From Polyangiales bacterium (GTDB lineage: Bacteria; Myxococcota_A; Polyangia; Polyangiales; Ga0077539), in NCBI GenBank assembly GCA_044229975.1, contig JBGARZ010000018.1, positions 96,001 through 160,000 of the forward strand: DNA of 64,000 bases. The letters are read 5' to 3'. Positions 12,486 through 28,267 of this stretch are shown piece by piece; positions within the stretch are counted from its first letter, which is position 1, and every line of letters begins with the position of its first letter. The notes beneath the pieces were generated by a model. That model was given only the letters and a program-made list of their open reading frames with translations, did not search any database and had not been told where the DNA came from. Both the position numbers and the translations under genes were made by a program.

Positions 12486-12737
12486 CGATTGGGCGCAGCG
12501 CGCCACCGGAGGCACCTCAACAGAAGGGGCGGGCAAACGCCACTACCCGTCGGACATACCCTGTCACCGCGAAATCACGGAAAAATCAGGCATTCCAAGA
12601 GCGGGTGTCCGCAGCAGAGTAGGCAGCCGACGAGCGGTTGTTCGCGCTTTAATGGGGTCGACGCAGTGCAGCGGCCAGCGACGAGGTGAGTGCTCGGCAA
12701 TGGGTTGCTGGGCGAGGTCCGAGGTGCTGCGGCAGAT

Positions 12738-14836: not shown

Positions 14837-14893
14837 TTAGGCAGTCTTGAGTGAGTAAATTGATCTCCGTCGGGCCCCGACAGTGGGCCCCTG

Positions 14894-15250
14894 ATGGATC
14901 CCCCCGAAACCCCAGCCGATGTCCTCCGCGACGTCGGACGGCGCATCGCAGAGTTGCGGGTGGCCCAGGGCTGGACCCAGGAGCAGATGGCAGAAGCGCT
15001 CGACGTGAACCTCCCCTACCTCCAGCGGATCGAAGGGGGCCGGGAGAACCTCACGGTCCGCTCGCTCGCGAGGCTCGCCCACGTTCTGGGCGTCAGGGTC
15101 GGGGCCCTCTTCGAGGCGCCGACGGATCGGACGGTGCGCGGGCCCGGTCGACCCCGCCGACCCAGGTCCACCGCGGTCGCACCGACCGAAGGGCATCCCT
15201 CCCCCGAAGAAGACGCGGCTGCGACCGCCTCCCAGAAGCCAGCCAAGTAG
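14894..15250 (+). CDS. XRE-family HTH transcriptional regulator
   Basis: VGRRIAELRVAQGWTQEQMAEAL...YLQRIEGGRENLT...LAHVLGV. Confidence 0.92.
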   Translation: MDPPETPADVLRDVGRRIAELRVAQGWTQEQMAEALDVNLPYLQRIEGGRENLTVRSLARLAHVLGVRVGALFEAPTDRTVRGPGRPRRPRSTAVAPTEGHPSPEEDAAATASQKPAK

Positions 15251-15305
15251 GGGGCGACTGTCGCTCGCTGGATCTCTTCATACCGAAACGATATGGTTTA
15301 CCGCC

Positions 15306-16268
15306 ATGTCACCCCCCACACGGACCAACCTGCGCAAGGTCCAGCCCTTCCTGCTGCCCCACGGGATCGCCCAGGCCCTGGAAGCAACCGCCCGCGCGAT
15401 GGCGTCGCCCATGATGCCGCACGTCAGCCTGGCGGCGGCTGCGCGTGAGCTCATCGACAAGGGCCTCGTCTCGCTCGACGCGCTGCTGCAGTCCGGTCGG
15501 GAGGTGGTCTGGGAGGCCGTCGACCCGCCGCGCGGTGCACGTCGGCGCGAGGCTGCATCGTCGAGCGACACGCGGGTGCGCGACGACACCTACGTCCAGG
15601 TCTCGCCGCTCGCGCTCTCGGAGGAGATCATCGAGCGCCTGGAAGACGTGCGACGACGCCTCTCCGCGGCGAAGGGCACGAAGGTCTCGACGGTGAAGGC
15701 GCTGCGCGAGTCGCTGGTCCGGGGCCTCGCCGCGCGGGAGCAGGCCCACGCGGGCGTCGAGGCTCTGCTCCTGAAGTACCCGCGGGAGTTCGGCGCGCTC
15801 GGCTTCGGCTCGGCGGCACAGGTCACCGTGGTCGCATCGGGCGTGACTCAGCGCTACGCCCAGCCCGCGGGGAAGGCCAATCCGTGGGGCCGCCCAACTC
15901 GCGCGGCTTCCAAGCGCAAGGCGACCCCTGCCCCCAAGGTCGCCACGAGGTCGACGACGACGGCGCGCCCCCGGTCACGCGGTCATCACCAACAAGCCGC
16001 CGTCCGCAAGGTGCCGTCTGGAGACGATGACGATGGCGGAGGCGACGGTGAACCACCACCCGCGCGGCGACCGCCCGCACAGGCCCCCACAACTGAGACA
16101 GCGAGCATCGCGAGCGCGACGCCGCCCGCGCGAGAGCCTCGGCTGGCGGATCTGGCGTGGCGGGCGAAGGCCCAGAGCGCCCTGGCTCGGCTCTTCCTGG
16201 CCACTGTCGGCCGACCGCAGCAACAGCCTCTTCGAGGCCCCGTGACCCCAGACCGAGGCAGGCAATGA
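15306..16268 (+). CDS. putative tandem ribbon-helix-helix DNA-binding protein
   Basis: Two CopG-like units (PFLLPHGIAQALE...VSLAAAARELIDKGL; PLALSEEIIERLE...VSTVKALRESLVRGL). Stop overlaps the recombinase ATG. Confidence 0.55.
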   Translation: MSPPTRTNLRKVQPFLLPHGIAQALEATARAMASPMMPHVSLAAAARELIDKGLVSLDALLQSGREVVWEAVDPPRGARRREAASSSDTRVRDDTYVQVSPLALSEEIIERLEDVRRRLSAAKGTKVSTVKALRESLVRGLAAREQAHAGVEALLLKYPREFGALGFGSAAQVTVVASGVTQRYAQPAGKANPWGRPTRAASKRKATPAPKVATRSTTTARPRSRGHHQQAAVRKVPSGDDDDGGGDGEPPPARRPPAQAPTTETASIASATPPAREPRLADLAWRAKAQSALARLFLATVGRPQQQPLRGPVTPDRGRQ

Positions 16269-17863
16269 AGGTGGCGATCTACGTCCGCGTCTCGACCGAC
16301 GAGCAGGCCCACAGCGCGGGGGCCCAGGAGGCCGGCGCGAGGGCCTGGGCCGAGGCACGTAGGCACACCGTCGTCGCCGTGTACCGCGACATCGGCCAGT
16401 CGGGCGCCGAGTGGGTGCGCCGACGCGGCATCCTCGACGTGCAGCTCGACGTCACCCGTACGCCGCGACCGTGGGACGCGCTCGTCGTCCGCGATCTCGA
16501 CCGCCTCGGACGCGACCAGGTCCGACTGCCCCTGCTGCTCTCCACCCTGGGTGACCACGATGCGAAGGTCATCGAGTGGTCCGTCGATCGCGTCGTCGAG
16601 CTCGACGCGGTGGGAATGATGATCGCGTCCATGCGCTCGGGCATCGCGGCGATCGAGCGGGAGAACATCGCCCACCGCACGCGCACCGCGCTCCGCCAGA
16701 AGGCCGAGCGCGGCCTGAACGTCGGCGGCATCGCCTACGGCTACCGCCACGTCCGGTCCCCAGACGGGGTGCGCGACGTCATCGACGAGGTCGAGGCCGG
16801 GGTGGTGCGCGAGGTGTTCGAGCGCGCCGCGAGCGGCCAGAGCGTACGCGTCATCGCCCACGACCTGAACCTTCGGGGCGTCCCCTCCCCTCGCGCCGGC
16901 AAGCGCGGCACCGGCACCTGGGCGCCGTCGGCGCTCTGGGTGATCGTACGCAACCCGCGCTACCGGGGGTTGATCGTGTGGGGCGCGGTCGGGTCGAAGT
17001 ACAAGGGTGGCTCTCGAGTCACGATCGACCGGCCGGACGCCGTGGAAAGGGTCGATCCCTCCCTCGCCATCGTGAGCACCGACCTGTGGCAGCGAGCGCA
17101 GTCGGAGGCTGACCCTGCACGGGTCGCCGCCGGGCGAGCGATCAAGCGCGGCGCCACGCCGAGGCATCTGCTGATTGGGCTCGCCGTCTGTGATCGGTGC
17201 GGCGGCCCCATTGGAAGCGCGCGACAACTGGCTGGCGGCGTGAGCGTTCCGGCGTACTGCTGCCTCTGGCACCGCGACCGCGGCGACGCGGTCTGCCCGG
17301 TGGGCTTCTGCCGCGTCGCGGAGCGGCTCGACCGGGTTCTGCTCGACTGGCTCGTCACGGAGGTACTGGACGCCGAGCTGATCGCCGGAGCGGTCGCCGA
17401 AGCCCGCCGGATGGCGCTTGCGACGGAGCCCGATACTCGCCTCGAACAACTGCGCGCCGAGGAGCGGGAGCACGTGCTGGCAGTGTCGCGCCTCACGACC
17501 GCCATCGAGATCGGGGCGGGCGAGGTATCGGAGATCGCCACCCGGCTGGCCCAGCGCTCGAAGCAGTTGGCAGAGGTGCGGTCAGCCCTGGCCCGTGAGA
17601 CCATGACGTCGTCGGAGATTCCGATCGACCTCGAGGCCCGGTTGGGCGCGGCAGCTAGAAATGTGAGGGAGGTGATGACGGCTGAGCCCGCCCAGGCGCG
17701 TGGAGTCCTGGAAGCCGTTCTCGTCGGCCGCGTGCGAGTGTCGCAGCCGGTGAAGCGCGGTCCCGTATGGCTGACTGCCGAAGCAGTCCCCGGGATGCTG
17801 CTCGCCTCTCAGGAGCAGCACCCCGGGCATACGGGGTATGTGGGTGACCCTAACGGGATTTGA
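16265..17863 (+). CDS. large serine recombinase (integrase)
   Basis: IYVRVST catalytic Ser, DLDRLGR, ERENI..RT, recombinase domain, Zn ribbon CDRCG...YCC...C, and coiled coil. Confidence 0.95.
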   Translation: MKVAIYVRVSTDEQAHSAGAQEAGARAWAEARRHTVVAVYRDIGQSGAEWVRRRGILDVQLDVTRTPRPWDALVVRDLDRLGRDQVRLPLLLSTLGDHDAKVIEWSVDRVVELDAVGMMIASMRSGIAAIERENIAHRTRTALRQKAERGLNVGGIAYGYRHVRSPDGVRDVIDEVEAGVVREVFERAASGQSVRVIAHDLNLRGVPSPRAGKRGTGTWAPSALWVIVRNPRYRGLIVWGAVGSKYKGGSRVTIDRPDAVERVDPSLAIVSTDLWQRAQSEADPARVAAGRAIKRGATPRHLLIGLAVCDRCGGPIGSARQLAGGVSVPAYCCLWHRDRGDAVCPVGFCRVAERLDRVLLDWLVTEVLDAELIAGAVAEARRMALATEPDTRLEQLRAEEREHVLAVSRLTTAIEIGAGEVSEIATRLAQRSKQLAEVRSALARETMTSSEIPIDLEARLGAAARNVREVMTAEPAQARGVLEAVLVGRVRVSQPVKRGPVWLTAEAVPGMLLASQEQHPGHTGYVGDPNGI

Positions 17864-17916
17864 ACCCGTATTACCGACGTGAGAGGCCGATGTCCTAACC
17901 GTTAGACGATAGGGCC
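17845..17916 (-). tRNA. tRNA-Glu(CTC), CCA not encoded
   Basis: GGCCCTATCGTCTAACGGTTAGGACATCGGCCT-CTC-ACGTCGGTAATACGGGTTCAAATCCCGTTAGGGTCA folds as a cloverleaf. Confidence 0.95.
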
Positions 17917-17924
17917 GAGAGAAC

Positions 17925-17998
<74 letters not shown>

Positions 17999-23760: not shown

Positions 23761-24819
23761 TCAACCGAGGGTCGAGTCACCCAGGGTCAGCACCGGTCCC
23801 GCGAGCGGCAGCTCCAGGGTGAAGCGCGTGCCCTCCGCGCCCGTGTCGACGGTCATCGTTCCCTGGTGTTCGGTGACGATGCGGTACGCGATGGCGAGCC
23901 CGAGGCCGGTACCCCCGCGGCCCTGTCGCGTCGTCACGTAGGGCTCGTAGAGCCGCGCCATCACCGACTCCGCGATGCCCGCACCGTTGTCGGCGACGGT
24001 GATCTTGATGGTGCGCTCGCCGGGATACTGCGCTGCGACCTTCACCCACCCGGCGCCTCGCGAAGGGTCGTGGGTCGCGCGCTCCTCGGCGGCGAAGACC
24101 GCGTTGCCCACGAGGTTGATGAGCACCTGCGTGATCTGGTCTCGATCGGCGCGAAGCGACGGCAGATCGTCGGGCGCGTCGCACGTCACGGTCGCCGACG
24201 ACGATCGGTGGAGGTCCGTCGCGTGGTGCAGCAGCTCGGCGACGTCGACGGGCTCGGGTCGCGGCCGGGGCATGCGTGCAAACTGCGAAAACGCGTCGAG
24301 CAACCGACGCAGCCGCTCGACCTCTTCGAGCACGATGCCTGTCTCCTCGTCGAACAGTCGTTCGAAGAGGTCGCGGTCGCGGGCGCGAGCCTTGCGAAGG
24401 TTCTCGACGCCGAGGCGGATGGGCGTGAGCGGGTTCTTGATCTCGTGGGCCATCTGCCGCGCGATGTCCCTCCAGGCCGCGAGGCGCTCGGCGCGGCGCG
24501 AACGCTTCTCCGCGACAGCGAGCGCGTCGGTCATGCGGTTGAAGGCGACCACGAGGCGTTGTGAGTCGGCGTCGCCGTCGTCGTCGAGGGCGACGTGCAC
24601 GCGCCGCTCGCCCTGGGCCACGCGCTCGGCGGCCTCGGCGAAGGGCGCGAGCGCGGAGGGTCGGCGACGGAAGAGCACCCACGCGAGGGCGAGCACGCAG
24701 ACGAGCGAACCCGCGAAGGCGGGCAGCACGTAGCCGCCCTCCAGCGTCGCGATGAACACCGCCCCCACCGCCGGCAGGATGGCGATGGCCAGCGCGAGGG
24801 CGCGTCCGCTCGCCGTCAC
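23761..24819 (-). CDS. membrane sensor histidine kinase (HAMP-HisKA-HATPase, NtrY-like core)
   Basis: Two TM segments, AHEIKNPLTPI, NLVGNA, DNGAG and GTGLGL motifs. Confidence 0.92.
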   Translation of the reverse strand: MTASGRALALAIAILPAVGAVFIATLEGGYVLPAFAGSLVCVLALAWVLFRRRPSALAPFAEAAERVAQGERRVHVALDDDGDADSQRLVVAFNRMTDALAVAEKRSRRAERLAAWRDIARQMAHEIKNPLTPIRLGVENLRKARARDRDLFERLFDEETGIVLEEVERLRRLLDAFSQFARMPRPRPEPVDVAELLHHATDLHRSSSATVTCDAPDDLPSLRADRDQITQVLINLVGNAVFAAEERATHDPSRGAGWVKVAAQYPGERTIKITVADNGAGIAESVMARLYEPYVTTRQGRGGTGLGLAIAYRIVTEHQGTMTVDTGAEGTRFTLELPLAGPVLTLGDSTLG

Positions 24820-26306
24820 TTCTTGTAGAGGACTTCGAGGATGGCGGTGCGGCGCGAGGCGTTCTCGTCGAAGGTTACGACCTCGTCGTTGGCGAGCGAC
24901 TCGTGGCCGTGGGCGCGCGCGTAGATGTAGTCGTTGCCCGGGTCGGGCTCGGGCTTGTTCCAGCAGACCTTGAGCGCGAGCTCGGGCACGCCGAGGGCGA
25001 GCTCTTCGAGAATGATGTACCCGCGGTCGGCGGTGTTGTTGTGGTGGTAGTAGGCGCCGCGCAGGGAGGAGTAGTTCATGCTCTTGAGCGCGCCGTTGTG
25101 GCGGGTGAACTTCTTGCCCTTCTCGTCGACCGCGGTGTTGTCACCGGAGTCCGCCCAGCACGGCGTGTGATAGATGCCCAGGCCGAAGGTGCGGCCCGTG
25201 ACGTGAACGCCCTTGGGGAGGTTCTTCGGCAGCACGAGGCCCGACTTGAGGACGCCCATGAGGTTCTCGGTCCGGGTGCCGTGCCAGCCCCAGGTGATGC
25301 CGGTGGCCTTCGGCTTCTTGGTGATGGTCGCGGCGTAGTTGTCGAAGAGCGACTTGCGTCCCTGCTGCTCGACCTTCCAGATGCGGCCGACCTTGAGCAG
25401 GTTGTAGAAGTTGGAGTTCTTCGGCGACTGGCCCTTGGAGAAGAGCTTCTCGATGAGCTTGTACTCGTCGCTCTTCGGGTCGATGTGCCCGATGTCGCAT
25501 TTGAGACCGTCGTACCAGACCTCCGTCGGGTCATCGACCTCGGCGGCCTTCGAGAACACGTCGCGCTGGAGGAAGGCGTCCCTCAGCAGCGTGATGAACT
25601 TCCGCTGCTCGTTGATGCGCTCTTCGGAGTTGATGACGATGGCGTCGAGGTCGAGCTTCCCCTTCTTGCGCGCGCCGTCGATGTTGCGCGGGATGTTGGA
25701 GAGGTACTCGTTGGTGAGCTCGATGTAGTCGTTCTTGGTGGCCTTGGTGGTGCCCTTCACCATCGACTCGGCCTGCTGGAGAAGGTCGGCGCCCTTGTCC
25801 AACTGGCGGTCGGAGAGGTTGCCCAGCGGCGACTCCTTGGTCGCGCCCGCCGACGACGAGAGACCCGCCGCGACGGCCTGCCCGGTCGCCCCGTAGAGGA
25901 GCTTCAGCAGCGACTCCACCTCGGGGTGAAACTCCCTCGTCCGCACGGTCTTCGCCTTCGGCTGCGATGGGTCCGCGGCGGGCTCGGCGGTCTTCGCGGA
26001 GGTCTTGGCCTTCTCCTCGTCGAGCGACCGCATGTCGAGCTTCGTGTAGCCCTTGGCGACCTTCTCGTTGACCTTCTTGTTGAGGGCAGACTTCGCGGCC
26101 ACGAGCGTCGACGCCGTGACCTCCTGGGTCTGCCCGGCCTGCCCCACGCGCCCGTAGGTGAAGATCACCCGGAAGGTGCCGCCCTCGTCGAAGATCTGCG
26201 CCTTGTAGAACTTGTTGGACCCCAGGGACGTCGCCCCGGTCTTCTTCCCGGTGAGGTCGGTCCAGTTGAGGGTGACCTCTTCGACCAGTGTTCCTGTGCT
26301 GCTCAT
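24816..26306 (-). CDS. WGR-domain poly(ADP-ribose) polymerase (WGR + PARP regulatory + catalytic)
   Basis: NKFY..Q/YGRVG (WGR), PLGNLS (regulatory), WHGTRTEN..GVL..GL, FGLGIY, KSMNY, ELALG and NDEVV.FD. Confidence 0.9.
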   Translation of the reverse strand: MSSTGTLVEEVTLNWTDLTGKKTGATSLGSNKFYKAQIFDEGGTFRVIFTYGRVGQAGQTQEVTASTLVAAKSALNKKVNEKVAKGYTKLDMRSLDEEKAKTSAKTAEPAADPSQPKAKTVRTREFHPEVESLLKLLYGATGQAVAAGLSSSAGATKESPLGNLSDRQLDKGADLLQQAESMVKGTTKATKNDYIELTNEYLSNIPRNIDGARKKGKLDLDAIVINSEERINEQRKFITLLRDAFLQRDVFSKAAEVDDPTEVWYDGLKCDIGHIDPKSDEYKLIEKLFSKGQSPKNSNFYNLLKVGRIWKVEQQGRKSLFDNYAATITKKPKATGITWGWHGTRTENLMGVLKSGLVLPKNLPKGVHVTGRTFGLGIYHTPCWADSGDNTAVDEKGKKFTRHNGALKSMNYSSLRGAYYHHNNTADRGYIILEELALGVPELALKVCWNKPEPDPGNDYIYARAHGHESLANDEVVTFDENASRRTAILEVLYKK

Positions 26307-26395
26307 CCGATGGCGCTCCGACGTAGAGGGTTTCAGGGAAAGGGGCTGAGTTGAGGCGGACGGGGATACCACCGGGACGGCATCGGATGCGAGGC

Positions 26396-26465
26396 GGGGA
26401 CGGTCTCAGCTTTTCACCCTTGGACGTTGCCTGACCCCTGAAGGTGAAAAGCTGAGTCCGTCCCC
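26396..26465. repeat. REP-like inverted repeat
   Basis: GGGGACGGTCTCAGCTTTTCACC ... GGTGAAAAGCTGAGTCCGTCCCC: 23-bp arms with one mismatch. Confidence 0.8.
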
Positions 26466-26668
26466 ACCCGCCTGCGCCGACGCGTCGGCGTAGGCCCGGG
26501 AGGACATCGCGCCAGAGCGGGGAAAGTGCCGCGACCGTCGCGCTTCGTTGACACCGGCCGGTGAAGTTGGAGAGACTCCCGTCCGAAGAAACCACCGTAA
26601 TTCCTGCGGCGGTATCGAAGTCTTCGCGGGCGCTCCAAGGGGCGGGCCCGCGGAGGGGTTGAAGGGCG

Positions 26669-28267
26669 ATGCTGAAGCTCGTGATCTCCGACGACGAGGG
26701 CAAGACGATGGTCATCCCGCTCACCCGGGATGAGCTCACCATCGGTCGCAAGGACGGAAACTCCATCCGCCTCACCGAGCGCAACGTCTCCCGACGCCAC
26801 GCGCGCATCGTGAAGCGTTCGGAGGGCTTCTTCCTCGAAGACCTCGCCAGCTACAACGGCATCGTCATCAACGGCGCACGCCTCGCCGAGCCGAAGCCGA
26901 TGCGCGGCGGCGACCAGATCCTCATCGGCGACTACAAGCTCCAGGTCGTCGAAGAGGCGGGTGCCCAGCCCACGCCTCCGCCGCCTGCGCCGCCGCCCGT
27001 CGCCTCCGAACACGCGGCCCCGCTCCTCGCCGCCACGCCGAGCACCAACCCGGGCAGCGCGCCGGGCCTCGCCGCCCTCAATGACCCGCTCGCGCCTGCG
27101 TCGACTGCCAGCGCGCCGGTGCCCGAGAGCATCAAGGGCATGCGCGTGGTGTTTCTCGCGCCCGCCGGCGTGCCCGCCCCGGTGTTGCTCGACCGCCTCC
27201 CGATGATCCTCGGGCGCAGCGAGTCGGCCGACATCGCGCTCGCGTTCAGCTCCATCTCGCGTGAGCACGCGCGGCTCTTCTGCGAGGACGACAAGCTCTT
27301 CATCGAGGACATGGGGAGCTCCAACGGCATCCAGATCAACGGCGAGAAGTGCCGCAAGGGGGAGCTCTCCCCCGGCGACATGGTGCAGCTCGGGGTCGTG
27401 GAGTTCCGCGTCGCTCGCCGCGGTGACAGCACCGTGGTCATCCAGCGCGCGGCCGCCGACGAGCGCGCCGCCGCGGGCCGATCGAACAAGGGCCTCATCG
27501 CGGGCGTGGTGTTCGGCGGCGTGTGCCTCGGGCTCCTGGTGCTCTTCATCGCGACGCACCGCACGGGTCCGTCGCCGGTCAATCCGCAGCCCGATCCCCC
27601 GACGGCCTCGGCCGCCGCGACGCCCACCGCCCCGACGCCTCCAACGACGCCGGTTGCTCCCCCACCGACCCCGGTCGCGCCCGCCGCCACCCCCGAGTCT
27701 GTGCCCGCCGTGGTCGCTGCTGCGGCTCCCGAAGCGGGTGTTGCGCCTGCGCCCGCCGCAGCTGTTGTTGCGCCGCCCACCGCACCGACCCCGGAGGTCG
27801 TTCCTGCCGCGCCTGCGGTGGTGCCTGCGCCGCCCGCTGTCGTCGAGCCCACGCCCCCGGTGAACCAGGTCGTCGAGACGGCCCACGATCGCCGCGATCA
27901 CCGCCACCCGACCACCACCCCCGCCGCGACCCCACGCGCCGCGGCGACGCCTCGCCCCGTCACCGCACCGGCCCCCGCGCCCGCGCCAACCCCGGCGCCC
28001 GCGGGTGACCCCGGCGCTTCGCCGATGGACCAGGCGCGCGCCTGCCTCCGCTCTTCGGAGAACATGAACGCCGGCAACCAGTGCGTTGTCAACGTGCTGC
28101 GCGGCCGCGCCAACAGCGAGTCCGAGGTGGGCCTGCTCTGCACGACCTACCGCACCATGAGCCGCACGAGCGACGCGGTGCGCTGCATGCGCAACTACAT
28201 CCAGCGCTTCCCCTCCGGCGCGCGCGTCCCGTCCTTCCAGCAGTACATCGACGGCAACAGCCAGTAG
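26669..28267 (+). CDS. double-FHA domain membrane protein with Pro/Ala-rich periplasmic part
   Basis: Two FHA domains (IGR...VSRRHA...SYNG; LGR...ISREHA...SSNG), one TM segment and a Cys-containing helical C-terminus. Confidence 0.9.
   Translation: MLKLVISDDEGKTMVIPLTRDELTIGRKDGNSIRLTERNVSRRHARIVKRSEGFFLEDLASYNGIVINGARLAEPKPMRGGDQILIGDYKLQVVEEAGAQPTPPPPAPPPVASEHAAPLLAATPSTNPGSAPGLAALNDPLAPASTASAPVPESIKGMRVVFLAPAGVPAPVLLDRLPMILGRSESADIALAFSSISREHARLFCEDDKLFIEDMGSSNGIQINGEKCRKGELSPGDMVQLGVVEFRVARRGDSTVVIQRAAADERAAAGRSNKGLIAGVVFGGVCLGLLVLFIATHRTGPSPVNPQPDPPTASAAATPTAPTPPTTPVAPPPTPVAPAATPESVPAVVAAAAPEAGVAPAPAAAVVAPPTAPTPEVVPAAPAVVPAPPAVVEPTPPVNQVVETAHDRRDHRHPTTTPAATPRAAATPRPVTAPAPAPAPTPAPAGDPGASPMDQARACLRSSENMNAGNQCVVNVLRGRANSESEVGLLCTTYRTMSRTSDAVRCMRNYIQRFPSGARVPSFQQYIDGNSQ

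Follow-up and report, generated by a model that had tools for sequence, protein, structure and literature searches.

A Myxococcota PARP lineage with a remodelled acceptor site and a co-inherited candidate partner protein

The window analysed here, a stretch of 64,000 nucleotides from a Polyangiales bacterium (contig JBGARZ010000018.1, positions 96,001 to 160,000), encodes a PARP, here called PARP-A, that is inherited across its relatives together with an unannotated protein of ~220 residues combining a winged helix with an MraZ-like part. Our preferred reading, to which we give a probability of roughly 45%, is that PARP-A is activated by DNA breaks, transfers single ADP-ribose units and tags this co-inherited partner within a predicted LexA-independent damage response. 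Bacterial PARPs built from WGR, helical and ART domains are already known as a class, to which the lineage of PARP-A, clade A, adds a rebuilt acceptor site and a candidate partner.

Gene, domains and fold

The gene and its domains lie on the minus strand as follows.

24816..26306, minus strand: PARP-A gene, 496 aa, WGR-helical domain-ART (ORF translation, Pfam, AlphaFold2 model, structure match)
26223..26246, minus strand: clade-specific insert of ~8 residues, nearly invariant, directly ahead of the WGR SNKFY motif (alignments)
26040..26228, minus strand: WGR domain, residues 27-89 (Pfam and alignments; residue roles from PMC6294510)
25542..25928, minus strand: helical (autoinhibitory) regulatory domain, residues 127-255 (Pfam, alignment, structure match)
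24819..25472, minus strand: ART catalytic domain, residues 279-496 (Pfam, structure match, alignment)

Translation of the frame gives 496 residues without internal stops. The original prediction, made from the sequence by eye, had read WGR, helical and catalytic domains in the order of PARP1, PARP2 and PARP3, and profile and structure searches both returned PARP: Pfam matches to WGR (27-89), PARP_reg (127-255) and PARP (279-389) all exceed their curated cut-offs, and the AlphaFold2 model (pLDDT 89.7, pTM 0.85) matches the WGR-CAT portion of PARP1 (4dqy_C) across residues 1-496, with a Foldseek E of 4.5e-24 and TM 0.68, and a VIA Z of 27.5 at 3.0 rmsd over 394 aligned residues. Residues K32, Y34, Y51, R53, Q59, K78, K82 and Y87 of the WGR domain correspond to K130, Y132, W151, R153, Q159, K179, K183 and Y201 of PARP2, the last of them mapped via paralog B, and eight of the nine break contacts of PARP2 (roles from PMC6294510) are kept or conservatively replaced (W151 by Y). 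At the position of PARP2 N127 we find G29, a glycine also present in PARP1, and the WGR arginine is lost in two basal clade-A proteins (P0123, P0124). By analogy with PARP2, PARP-A is probably an ADP-ribosyltransferase switched on by DNA breaks.

The unusual lysine richness pointed out at the outset is real (9.9% against a median of 1.2%, rank 3 among 3369 crudely called long ORFs), though it belongs to the whole clade, with a mean of 10.4% over 120 homologues and H1-like basic tails in basal members. Codon use is native, since GC3 is 0.96. Contigs from RNA libraries of relatives, in four studies, overlap the PARP-A frame, a kind of record that cannot show transcription.

Paralogs and distribution

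The host genome encodes three PARPs, namely PARP-A, a PARP3-like paralog B and a PARP4-like paralog C at the head of a type XIII retron operon, of which PARP-A is the least eukaryote-like. The initial label of a eukaryote-like enzyme therefore holds for domain order only and not for sequence, as best E-values against the PDB are 3.6e-16 for PARP-A versus 3.3e-116 for B (PARP3) and 7.6e-43 for C (PARP4). PARP-A matches PARP2 and PARP1 better than PARP3, and lacks the short SGGRVGKGIY loop and the QSEY motif, both of which are present in paralog B. A search of the host genome for major vault protein repeats returned none, as did its control. In quick trees of non-eukaryotic sequences, clade A forms a separate Myxococcota lineage on a long stem (SH-aLRT 100).

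We found 290 homologues, 120 of which were aligned; among the carriers, Paraliomyxa miuraensis (L034) is available in culture. PARP-A occurs in 20 of 31 genomes of the family, 17 of 401 of the order and 1 of 151 of a further sample, and all three paralogs coincide in 16 of the 31 family genomes; a phylum-level sample with PF00644 in 5 of 301 genomes is of unclear make-up and was excluded from these rates. The description of such PARPs as sporadic in bacteria thus suits the large scale (17/401, 1/151) but not the family (20/31).

Catalytic centre and acceptor site

The positions that matter for catalysis and chain elongation are these.

25281..25283, minus strand: H342 (PARP1 H862), invariant in 120/120 (alignments)
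25170..25172, minus strand: Y379 (PARP1 Y896), invariant in 120/120 (alignments)
24882..24884, minus strand: E475 (PARP1 E988), invariant in 120/120 (alignments)
25086..25169, minus strand: residues 380-407, 28 residues against 6 in PARP1 (22-aa insert), ending at K408 (PARP1 K903) (alignments)
25188..25190, minus strand: T373, at the PARP1 M890 acceptor-site position; A in 100, T in 17 and V in 3 of 120, never M (alignments)
25416..25418, minus strand: N297, at the PARP2 H394/PARP1 H826 acceptor-site position; N in 120/120 (alignments)

The catalytic triad had been placed by eye at exactly these codons, and the NAD-site and triad residues H342, G343, Y379, S409, Y412 and E475 are unchanged in all 120 aligned homologues. 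Equally invariant are the acceptor-site lysine K408 and the catalytic glutamate E475, both of which polymerases require. An intact H-Y-E triad does not, however, imply polymer synthesis, because PARP3 and PARP4 keep it and yet MARylate (PMC10711553), and the equivalents of M890 and H826 are known to matter for chain elongation (PMC10711553, PMC6486540). The insertion of about 20 residues first noticed after GIY measures 22, and the gap between Y379 and K408 spans 27-29 residues in 120/120 homologues versus 6 in PARP1 and the other PARPs aligned. The six named plasmid and phage PARPs (6/6) and one further myxobacterial PARP show the opposite of clade A, with Met at the M890 position and no insert, in a comparison set that left out HaPARP and CdPARP, proven bacterial polymerases. 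The Y986 position, N or H in the clade of PARP-A, was rejected as a diagnostic since other bacterial PARPs carry N or H there too. Absence of the M890 and H826 equivalents together with the insert leads us to regard PARP-A, from its sequence, as probably a mono- rather than a poly-ADP-ribosyltransferase.

A co-inherited partner

The model of the partner (pLDDT 84.9) places a winged helix at the N-terminus and an MraZ-like fold at the C-terminus, with middling fold scores (Z of 7.8 at most, Foldseek E of 0.013 or weaker), and we take it as a predicted DNA-binding protein. Searches against Pfam, NCBIfam and PADLOC gave zero matches, Atlas hits all stayed below 0.9, and among 7989 candidates no longer protein carrying the partner domain, as a fusion to a PARP would, was found, which is weak evidence.

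The partner is present in exactly the same 20/31 family and 17/401 order genomes as PARP-A, counts that are not independent among kin. It adjoins PARP-A in 26 of 50 loci and lies elsewhere in the genome in 19 of 21 further genomes, giving 45 of 47 distinct genomes; in the host it sits on a separate contig (C16, 19932-20585, PARP-A being on C24). Both genes are single-copy and have been retained after separation in 19 genomes. Paralogs B and C overlap with the partner as well (17/19 and 18/20 genomes), but in the six family genomes whose paralog content differs it tracks PARP-A, and not B or C, in 6/6. Over 27 genomes, with AspRS as a single marker and quick trees, tree distances of PARP-A and partner correlate at 0.88, versus 0.48 and 0.57 with AspRS (partial correlation 0.84), and the two trees share 19 of 24 splits, versus 13/24 and 14/24 with AspRS. 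We consider it likely that PARP-A functionally depends on this protein; that the latter is the direct ADP-ribose acceptor is a tentative proposal, somewhat short of an even chance.

Surroundings and a putative damage regulon

Around PARP-A the window holds the following.

23761..24819, minus strand: HisKA/HATPase histidine kinase gene, downstream of PARP-A (gene annotation, Pfam, synteny)
26669..28267, plus strand: double-FHA-domain gene, divergent from PARP-A (Pfam, synteny)
26389..26472, no strand assigned: palindromic dispersed repeat upstream of PARP-A, RNA fold z -8.8 (related copies across the genome)
26421..26437, minus strand: weak match to the damage-type GAC-N7-GTC box in the hairpin loop, 131 nt upstream of the ATG; its score of 12.5 is equalled or exceeded by 148 sites in the genome

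The annotated GTG start of the histidine kinase overlaps the PARP-A stop (GTGA), but it and the FHA gene were rejected as parts of the system because they neighbour PARP-A only in close relatives. The gene is set among housekeeping genes (aspS, rplT), with synteny kept in 6 close relatives. The upstream hairpin was likewise discarded as a conserved regulatory RNA, being a dispersed repeat with no Rfam match that is missing in the 6 close relatives.

Across 50 PARP-A loci the neighbours include PARP-B (12), ARH (7), LigA (4), PARG (2), RT plus SWIM (2) and MacroD (1). In 3 of the 4 genomes concerned, the adjacent LigA is a second genomic copy, and the partner itself adjoins LigA in 6 of 19 unlinked loci; the host genome (G000) gives one LigA match only. 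A genome-wide search, of the kind proposed with the original prediction, found matches to microbial PARG (1), Macro (6) and ARH (4) in the host. All of them lie off the contig of the window, in agreement, as far as the genome-wide search goes, with the earlier remark that no PARG or macrodomain partner occurs in the window.

A strong GAC-N7-GTC box is conserved upstream of the operon of partner and PARP-A in relatives, where in the partner promoter it stands 9-10 nt ahead of a TTGAC hexamer. The same box precedes recQ, ssb, ruvB, recD2 and recA in the host genome and, across the family, PARP-C at 12 of 13 loci, where it is strong too, and its exact pattern occurs in 29/31 family genomes against 0/31 for the reversed control. 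Of 8 matrices with permuted columns, 2 gave no fewer sites scoring above 18, and the 19 downstream genes scanned were picked by hand from the top hits, 10 of them without a Pfam match. At PARP-A itself, 3 of 6 close relatives carry the box with scores of 10-11.5 and the remaining 3 lack it; in all 10 upstream regions of other lineages it stays below 8, a score of 12 being reached by 0.5% of random 300-nt windows. The partner was rejected as the binder of the box, because a genome without partner and PARP-A (G284) has 25 exact sites. A LexA site is also disfavoured, as the score at lexA is 9.4 and another motif, similar to the LexA box of Myxococcus, is found in the lexA promoter. The spacing is that of the DriD site CGAC-N7-GTCG, as quoted in PMC13010146, and the host genome has 5 WYL matches.

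Proposed mechanism

By inference from PARP2, binding of the WGR domain to a 5'-phosphorylated break would unlock the helical domain, and the remodelled acceptor site (M890 to T or A, H826 to N, and the 22-aa insert before K903) may, judging from PARP1, PARP3 and PARP4, keep the products down to single ADP-ribose units or very short chains. The partner could be either the acceptor or a factor loading PARP-A on DNA, and its modification would alter its own binding to DNA. Enzymes of the ARH, macrodomain or PARG type may reverse the mark, whereas a WYL-type activator would induce the genes. A wider and more speculative proposal, which we consider rather unlikely as a whole, makes PARP-A and partner a two-protein DNA-break switch, one arm of a myxobacterial three-PARP network linked to erasing enzymes, a further ligase, a type XIII retron and a damage regulon independent of LexA; the partner would there be a DNA-bound substrate or trans-acting sensor, taking the role of histones or zinc fingers for PARP1.

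Alternative explanations

PARP-A might instead cap DNA ends in the manner of PARP3, by attaching mono-ADP-ribose to terminal phosphates and so protecting the ends or priming them for an extra NAD-dependent ligase, with the partner only recruiting the enzyme or regulating the operon. According to PMC5725667, PARP3 MARylates DNA ends and the mark is reversed by PARG, MACROD2, TARG1 and ARH3, and this fits with the second LigA clustered in 4/50 loci or beside the partner in 6/19, as well as with ARH or PARG close by in 9/50. It is the partner that is obligate, however, and not the ligase, because a single LigA was seen in the host, and the PARP3-like paralog B would be a more obvious candidate for such a task, which leaves end capping an unlikely reading. 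A little less likely still, PARP-A would be a conventional poly(ADP-ribose) polymerase activated by DNA, of the Herpetosiphon and C. difficile CD160 type, mainly automodifying and erased by PARG. Architecture and triad as in those enzymes (PMC5966428, PMC4245714), invariant K408 and E475, the microbial PARG of the genome, adjacent to PARP-A in 2/50 loci, and the many lysines and basic tails all speak for it; against it, the Met890 and His826 equivalents are missing in 120/120 homologues and the insert stands in sequence immediately ahead of the acceptor-site lysine.

The original prediction inferred a DNA-damage- or phage-activated system for ADP-ribosylation or NAD depletion, of which the damage side is strengthened by the box in the promoter and by the neighbouring ligase genes, while NAD depletion and phage defence are less favoured. 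As an anti-phage or abortive-infection module, in which phage DNA ends would trigger NAD+ depletion or a toxic modification and the partner would be antitoxin or autorepressor, the pair seems to us improbable. Such a role would suit the SWIM and RT genes of a type XIII retron that the pair follows in 2/50 loci, the retron operons headed by paralog C in 12/24, the patchy distribution, the similar deviation of both gene trees from AspRS, and the known occurrence of AbrB/MraZ folds in antitoxins. In PADLOC 2.0 with the 2023 library, though, neither the ART part nor the partner has a matching model, the sole hit being a weak WGR_XIII on the WGR part (E 6e-4), and housekeeping surroundings, native codon use, single-copy retention after separation and an autoinhibitory domain within PARP-A itself all point elsewhere. 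Finally, a neutral fragment recently taken up from a eukaryote, or contamination of the MAG, would find support in an assembly of 93% completeness and 3% contamination; this is refuted, with only the slightest residual chance, by bacterial neighbours, codon use, synteny, and 290 homologues with catalytic residues invariant among the 120 aligned and a carrier in culture.

Relation to known systems

The break-activated, partner-tagging enzyme that we prefer has the three domains and the H-Y-E triad in common with the bacterial PARPs of published surveys, and differs from them in the 22-aa ART insert, the 8-aa WGR insert, the absent M890 and H826 equivalents and the strictly co-occurring partner. 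Those surveys already include Myxococcales (Plesiocystis, Enhygromyxa, Sandaracinus) and deltaproteobacterial MAGs, in entries whose paralog type is not distinguishable, and the accessible parts of PMC8565304, PMC11125620, PMC12288472 and PMC7824862 hold nothing on clade A. Target and function of bacterial PARPs are listed as unknown (PMC8120803, Table 1), and reviews treat them as sporadic single acquisitions. One bacterium with two PARPs has been described (PMC4245714) and two per organism is the maximum of another table (PMC5966428); three distinct PARPs, two of them nearest PARP3 and PARP4, kept across a bacterial family were not found in the literature searched, nor was a PARP-macrodomain pair ahead of a type XIII retron.

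Type XIII retrons are described in PMC7736814, a paper whose main text mentions neither 'PARP' nor 'ADP-ribos'. In the retron operons that it heads, paralog C stands with a macrodomain gene directly upstream of the HEAT/WGR, SWIM and RT_XIII genes, and PARP-A follows SWIM and RT genes in the two loci mentioned, whereas PARP-A of the window lies outside a retron locus, next to FHA, histidine kinase and aspS. As for the WYL-activator regulons (DriD, DdaA, PafBC), the box shares the DriD spacing and precedes recA and ssb in the host, but the host lexA scores only 9.4; the WYL proteins of the genome are candidate regulators.

Compared with human PARP2, PARP3 and the WGR-HD-ART half of PARP1, PARP-A shares domain order, fold (Z 26-28) and the WGR break-contact residues, including the Y201 equivalent, and basal clade-A members have a counterpart of the basic N-terminal tail of PARP2. 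Identity is only ~20-27%, however, and PARP-A lacks the PARP1/3 hairpin ahead of the catalytic Glu and the N127 of PARP2. It is not an orthologue of PARP3, a likeness that belongs to paralog B. Human PARP3 and PARP4 resemble it in combining an intact triad with altered M890 and H826 positions (PMC10711553), yet PARP4 has Thr at K903 where PARP-A keeps Lys, with substitutions other than those of PARP3 and PARP4 and with the insert. Within the literature searched, this is the first candidate partner for a bacterial PARP, and since clade A comes with such a candidate, with candidate erasers, a candidate inducing signal and a cultured carrier, the role of a bacterial PARP in the cell becomes directly testable through two small soluble proteins. 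The three-PARP network, if true, would also bear on the origin of eukaryotic PARP3 and PARP4.

The PARP-A gene and its clade

The original prediction of a bacterial PARP, eukaryote-like in its domain order, was borne out by profile searches, in which the WGR, PARP_reg and PARP domains of the product of 24816-26306(-), here PARP-A (496 aa), all exceeded the Pfam cut-offs, and by a structural model (pLDDT 89.7) that can be overlaid on PARP1 WGR-CAT with Z 27.5 and an rmsd of 3.0 across 394 residues. The catalytic triad had been placed correctly by eye (H342, Y379 and E475) and does not vary across the best 120 of the 290 homologues. The insertion judged to be of some 20 residues is one of 22, leaving 28 residues instead of 6 between the triad tyrosine and the K903 equivalent, and the unusual richness in lysine also held (this residue makes up 9.9% of the protein, and the median for 3369 crude ORFs is 1.2%). 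The gene, with a GC3 of 0.96, is native and intact.

The host genome (10.0 Mb, 93% complete) has its nearest PARP-A loci, at 88-91% identity, in MAGs labelled Myxococcaceae, Myxococcales or delta-proteobacterium. A scan of GTDB genomes with two clade-specific peptide patterns, which therefore detects clade A alone, gave 50 loci, only one of them from a cultured strain and all but four labelled as Myxococcota taxa or Deltaproteobacteria; the exceptions were two 'Proteobacteria', which the tree places among Kofleriaceae, and two 'uncultured bacterium'. Among 1.84 billion representatives there were five long matches at E 1e-99 or better (one a 313-aa fragment) plus some short fragments, the next full-length PARPs following at about 1e-46. 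Quick trees, built from 104 and 32 proteins, separate clade A from six named plasmid and phage PARPs by a long branch with full support. The distribution of clade A is patchy, in that 20 of the 31 genomes of the family have it, as do 17 of 401 in an order sample and 1 of 151 in a second one. In one genome, PARP-A survives only as a stop-containing remnant, without the partner described below. Basal clade-A proteins (L028, L030, L032, L034, L041, L044, L047) carry histone-H1-like N-terminal tails of 48-122 aa, rich in Lys, Ala and Thr, which the window protein lacks; the deepest relatives, the metagenomic P0123 and P0124, keep insert and triad and have lost the WGR arginine.

The window neighbours of PARP-A (an FHA gene, a histidine kinase and aspS) are common to close relatives only. 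In the host genome only, the PARP-A promoter region contains a REP/MITE-like palindrome (26389-26472), related copies of which occur on several contigs; it may have altered expression. Elsewhere in the window, 14837-17998 probably marks one end of an integrated element, where an HTH gene and an ORF resembling serine recombinases (16157-17863, family assigned by eye) abut two tRNA genes:
17845-17916, tRNA gene
17928-17998, tRNA gene

A co-inherited partner protein

Clustering of the gene neighbours of the 50 loci revealed an unannotated protein of about 220 aa, encoded in the host genome at:
Contig C16, 19932-20585, partner gene

At 26 of the 50 loci this partner lies beside PARP-A or within its cluster, with gene order and orientation differing between loci, and in 19 of 21 other genomes tested it is encoded elsewhere, the three further loci being second pieces of MAGs already counted; in total, 45 of 47 genomes hold both genes. 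Within the family it occurs in exactly the 20 PARP-A genomes and in none of the 11 others, and in the order samples in the same 17 of 401 and the same 1 of 151. Six discordant family genomes show that it tracks PARP-A and not paralogs B or C. Of 30 genomes chosen for tree comparison, 27 were used (two had no AspRS match and one had only a partial match); tree distances of PARP-A and partner correlated at 0.88, the corresponding values with AspRS being 0.48 and 0.57, and 19 of 24 splits were shared, against 13 and 14, values to be read knowing that kin are not independent and that AspRS, as one marker, is a thin control. A search for longer proteins with the partner domain (7989 candidates) gave no PARP-partner fusion. 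The partner model (pLDDT 84.9) predicts a winged helix at residues 4-101, with many middling structure matches (Z 6-7.5), followed at the C-terminus by a barrel like that of MraZ, also a middling match (1n0e, Z 7.8, 97 residues). AbrB folds are found in antitoxins.

Three PARPs, candidate erasers and a retron

Three full WGR-HD-ART genes occur in the host genome, PARP-A and paralogs B and C, all together in 16 of 31 family genomes:
Contig C11, ~407.0-408.6 kb (L051:1492-3045(-)), paralog B
Contig C38, ~252.5-260.8 kb (L098:6550-14762(+)), paralog C, then macrodomain, HEAT/WGR_XIII, SWIM_XIII and RT_XIII genes (profile matches)

Paralog B, present in 19 of the 31, matches the human PARP3 catalytic fragment at E 3.3e-116 and paralog C matches PARP4 at 7.6e-43, PARP-A being the furthest of the three from eukaryotic PARPs (3.6e-16). 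The original prediction had noted no PARG or macrodomain partner in the window and proposed a genome search, which found one microbial PARG and six Macro matches, plus four ARH matches.

The paralog C operon is a type XIII retron operon headed by a PARP-macro pair, its full gene order being present at 12 of the 24 paralog C loci analysed, and the gap at L098 13068-13377 may hold the retron ncRNA. Type XIII retrons were defined in PMC7736814, whose main text makes no mention of PARP. Around PARP-A, at least one of PARP-B (directly upstream in 12), ARH (7), NAD-dependent ligase (4), PARG (2), SWIM plus RT (2) and MacroD (1) is found in 18 of 50 loci. Loci L041 and L043 each contain the entire network, with SWIM, RT, ARH, LigA, PARP-A and partner in a row on one strand, and their genomes have no PF00644 match beyond PARP-A. 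In one Kofleriaceae genome, a fourth type of WGR-HD-ART PARP (L166:1-1434(+)), with the M890 methionine kept, immediately precedes the partner gene.

A shared promoter box

In the family, a dyad G(A/T)CA-N5-TGTC precedes the partner gene, 9-10 nt before TTGAC. A matrix trained on 10 loci, all outside the host genus, found 13 host sites above 18, a count equalled by a column-permuted null in 2 of 8 runs, and 42 above 15; searching the 31 family genomes for an exact pattern gave sites in 29 of them, and the reversed control gave sites in none. Examples in the host genome are:
Contig C11, 417059, box site
Contig C11, 672209, box site
Contig C38, 307350, box site
Contig C27, 24805, box site
Contig C32, 173464, box site

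Nineteen ORFs hand-picked downstream of top sites gave Pfam matches to RecQ, SSB, RuvB, RecD2, RecA, topoisomerase VI B, a SWIM protein, HsdM and a desaturase, with no match for 10. The box precedes PARP-C (15.0 in the host; 12 of 13 family loci), PARP-B (3 of 7 loci) and the host partner gene (13.9). At the window PARP-A gene it is weak (12.5, inside a repeat loop); the matrix scan found none upstream of PARP-A in 3 of 6 close relatives, and all 10 regions from other lineages scored under 8. A strong box (17.1) at window 12551-12567(-) lies upstream of a gene region ending near a large opposite-strand DNA-methyltransferase-like ORF.

We regard the box as marking a candidate LexA-independent damage regulon, with a possibly WYL-type regulator. 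The host lexA promoter carries a different motif, similar to the Myxococcus LexA box. The box would likely be read by a WYL-type activator, since the DriD site has the same GAC-N7-GTC spacing (PMC13010146), the host has five WYL matches and the matrix scan found no good site upstream of lexA. One WYL gene (C38:2906) has a box site upstream, scoring 13.8. The partner was ruled out as reader because another genome, G284, has 25 exact sites and no partner.

Probable break sensing, chemistry and mechanism

PARP2 contacts 5'-phosphorylated breaks through K130, Y132, W151, R153, Q159, K179, K183, Y201 and N127 (PMC6294510), which align in PARP-A with K32, Y34, Y51, R53, Q59, K78, K82, Y87 and G29 (Y87 mapped via paralog B). 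Since these contacts are largely matched in the WGR domain, DNA breaks likely activate PARP-A.

PARP1 requires M890, H826, K903 and E988 to elongate chains, and an alteration of this site makes PARP3 and PARP4 mono-transferases although they have the H-Y-E triad (PMC10711553, PMC6486540). That PARP-A is an ordinary polymerase would fit the retention in clade A of K408 (K903 equivalent) and E475 (E988 equivalent). In all 120 homologues the M890 position is occupied by A, T or V and the H826 position by N, and the methionine is present in 6 of 6 named plasmid and phage PARPs compared. Because of these changes mono-ADP-ribosylation appears the better guess, and polymerase activity improbable. A role in capping DNA ends for an extra ligase, to be set beside a second LigA in 3 of the 4 genomes with a neighbouring ligase and a partner adjoining LigA in 6 of 19 unlinked loci, is also unlikely, though the least so of the alternatives; phage defence, to be set beside the retron operon, is the most doubtful of the three.

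Anatomy, co-inheritance, neighbours and box were observed directly, and activation, product, acceptor and induction are deduced. The most likely mechanism is one in which DNA damage would induce the PARP-A and partner pair, the WGR domain would bind a phosphorylated break, this binding would release the helical domain, and PARP-A would then transfer single ADP-ribose units onto the DNA-bound partner and itself, a mark that ARH, macro or PARG enzymes would reset.

Comparison with known systems

Bacterial WGR-PARP_reg-PARP enzymes, some of them from Myxococcales, were already reported (PMC4245714, PMC5966428, PMC8120803), and HaPARP was used in bioRxiv 10.64898/2026.10.17.759577; PARP3 is described as adding mono-ADP-ribose to DNA ends, a change undone by PARG, MACROD2, TARG1 and ARH3 (PMC5725667), and nothing on clade A came from PMC11125620, PMC12288472, PMC8565304 and PMC7824862. 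Across the literature searched (bacterial PARP/WGR, retron, myxobacteria and anti-phage, most subscription papers being outside coverage) there was no description of the clade-A partner, the three-paralog set or the PARP-retron link. PARP-A is a real gene for an already known kind of enzyme, and what is novel is its distinct clade, its remodelled acceptor site, its strictly co-inherited unnamed partner and its setting in a multi-PARP network.
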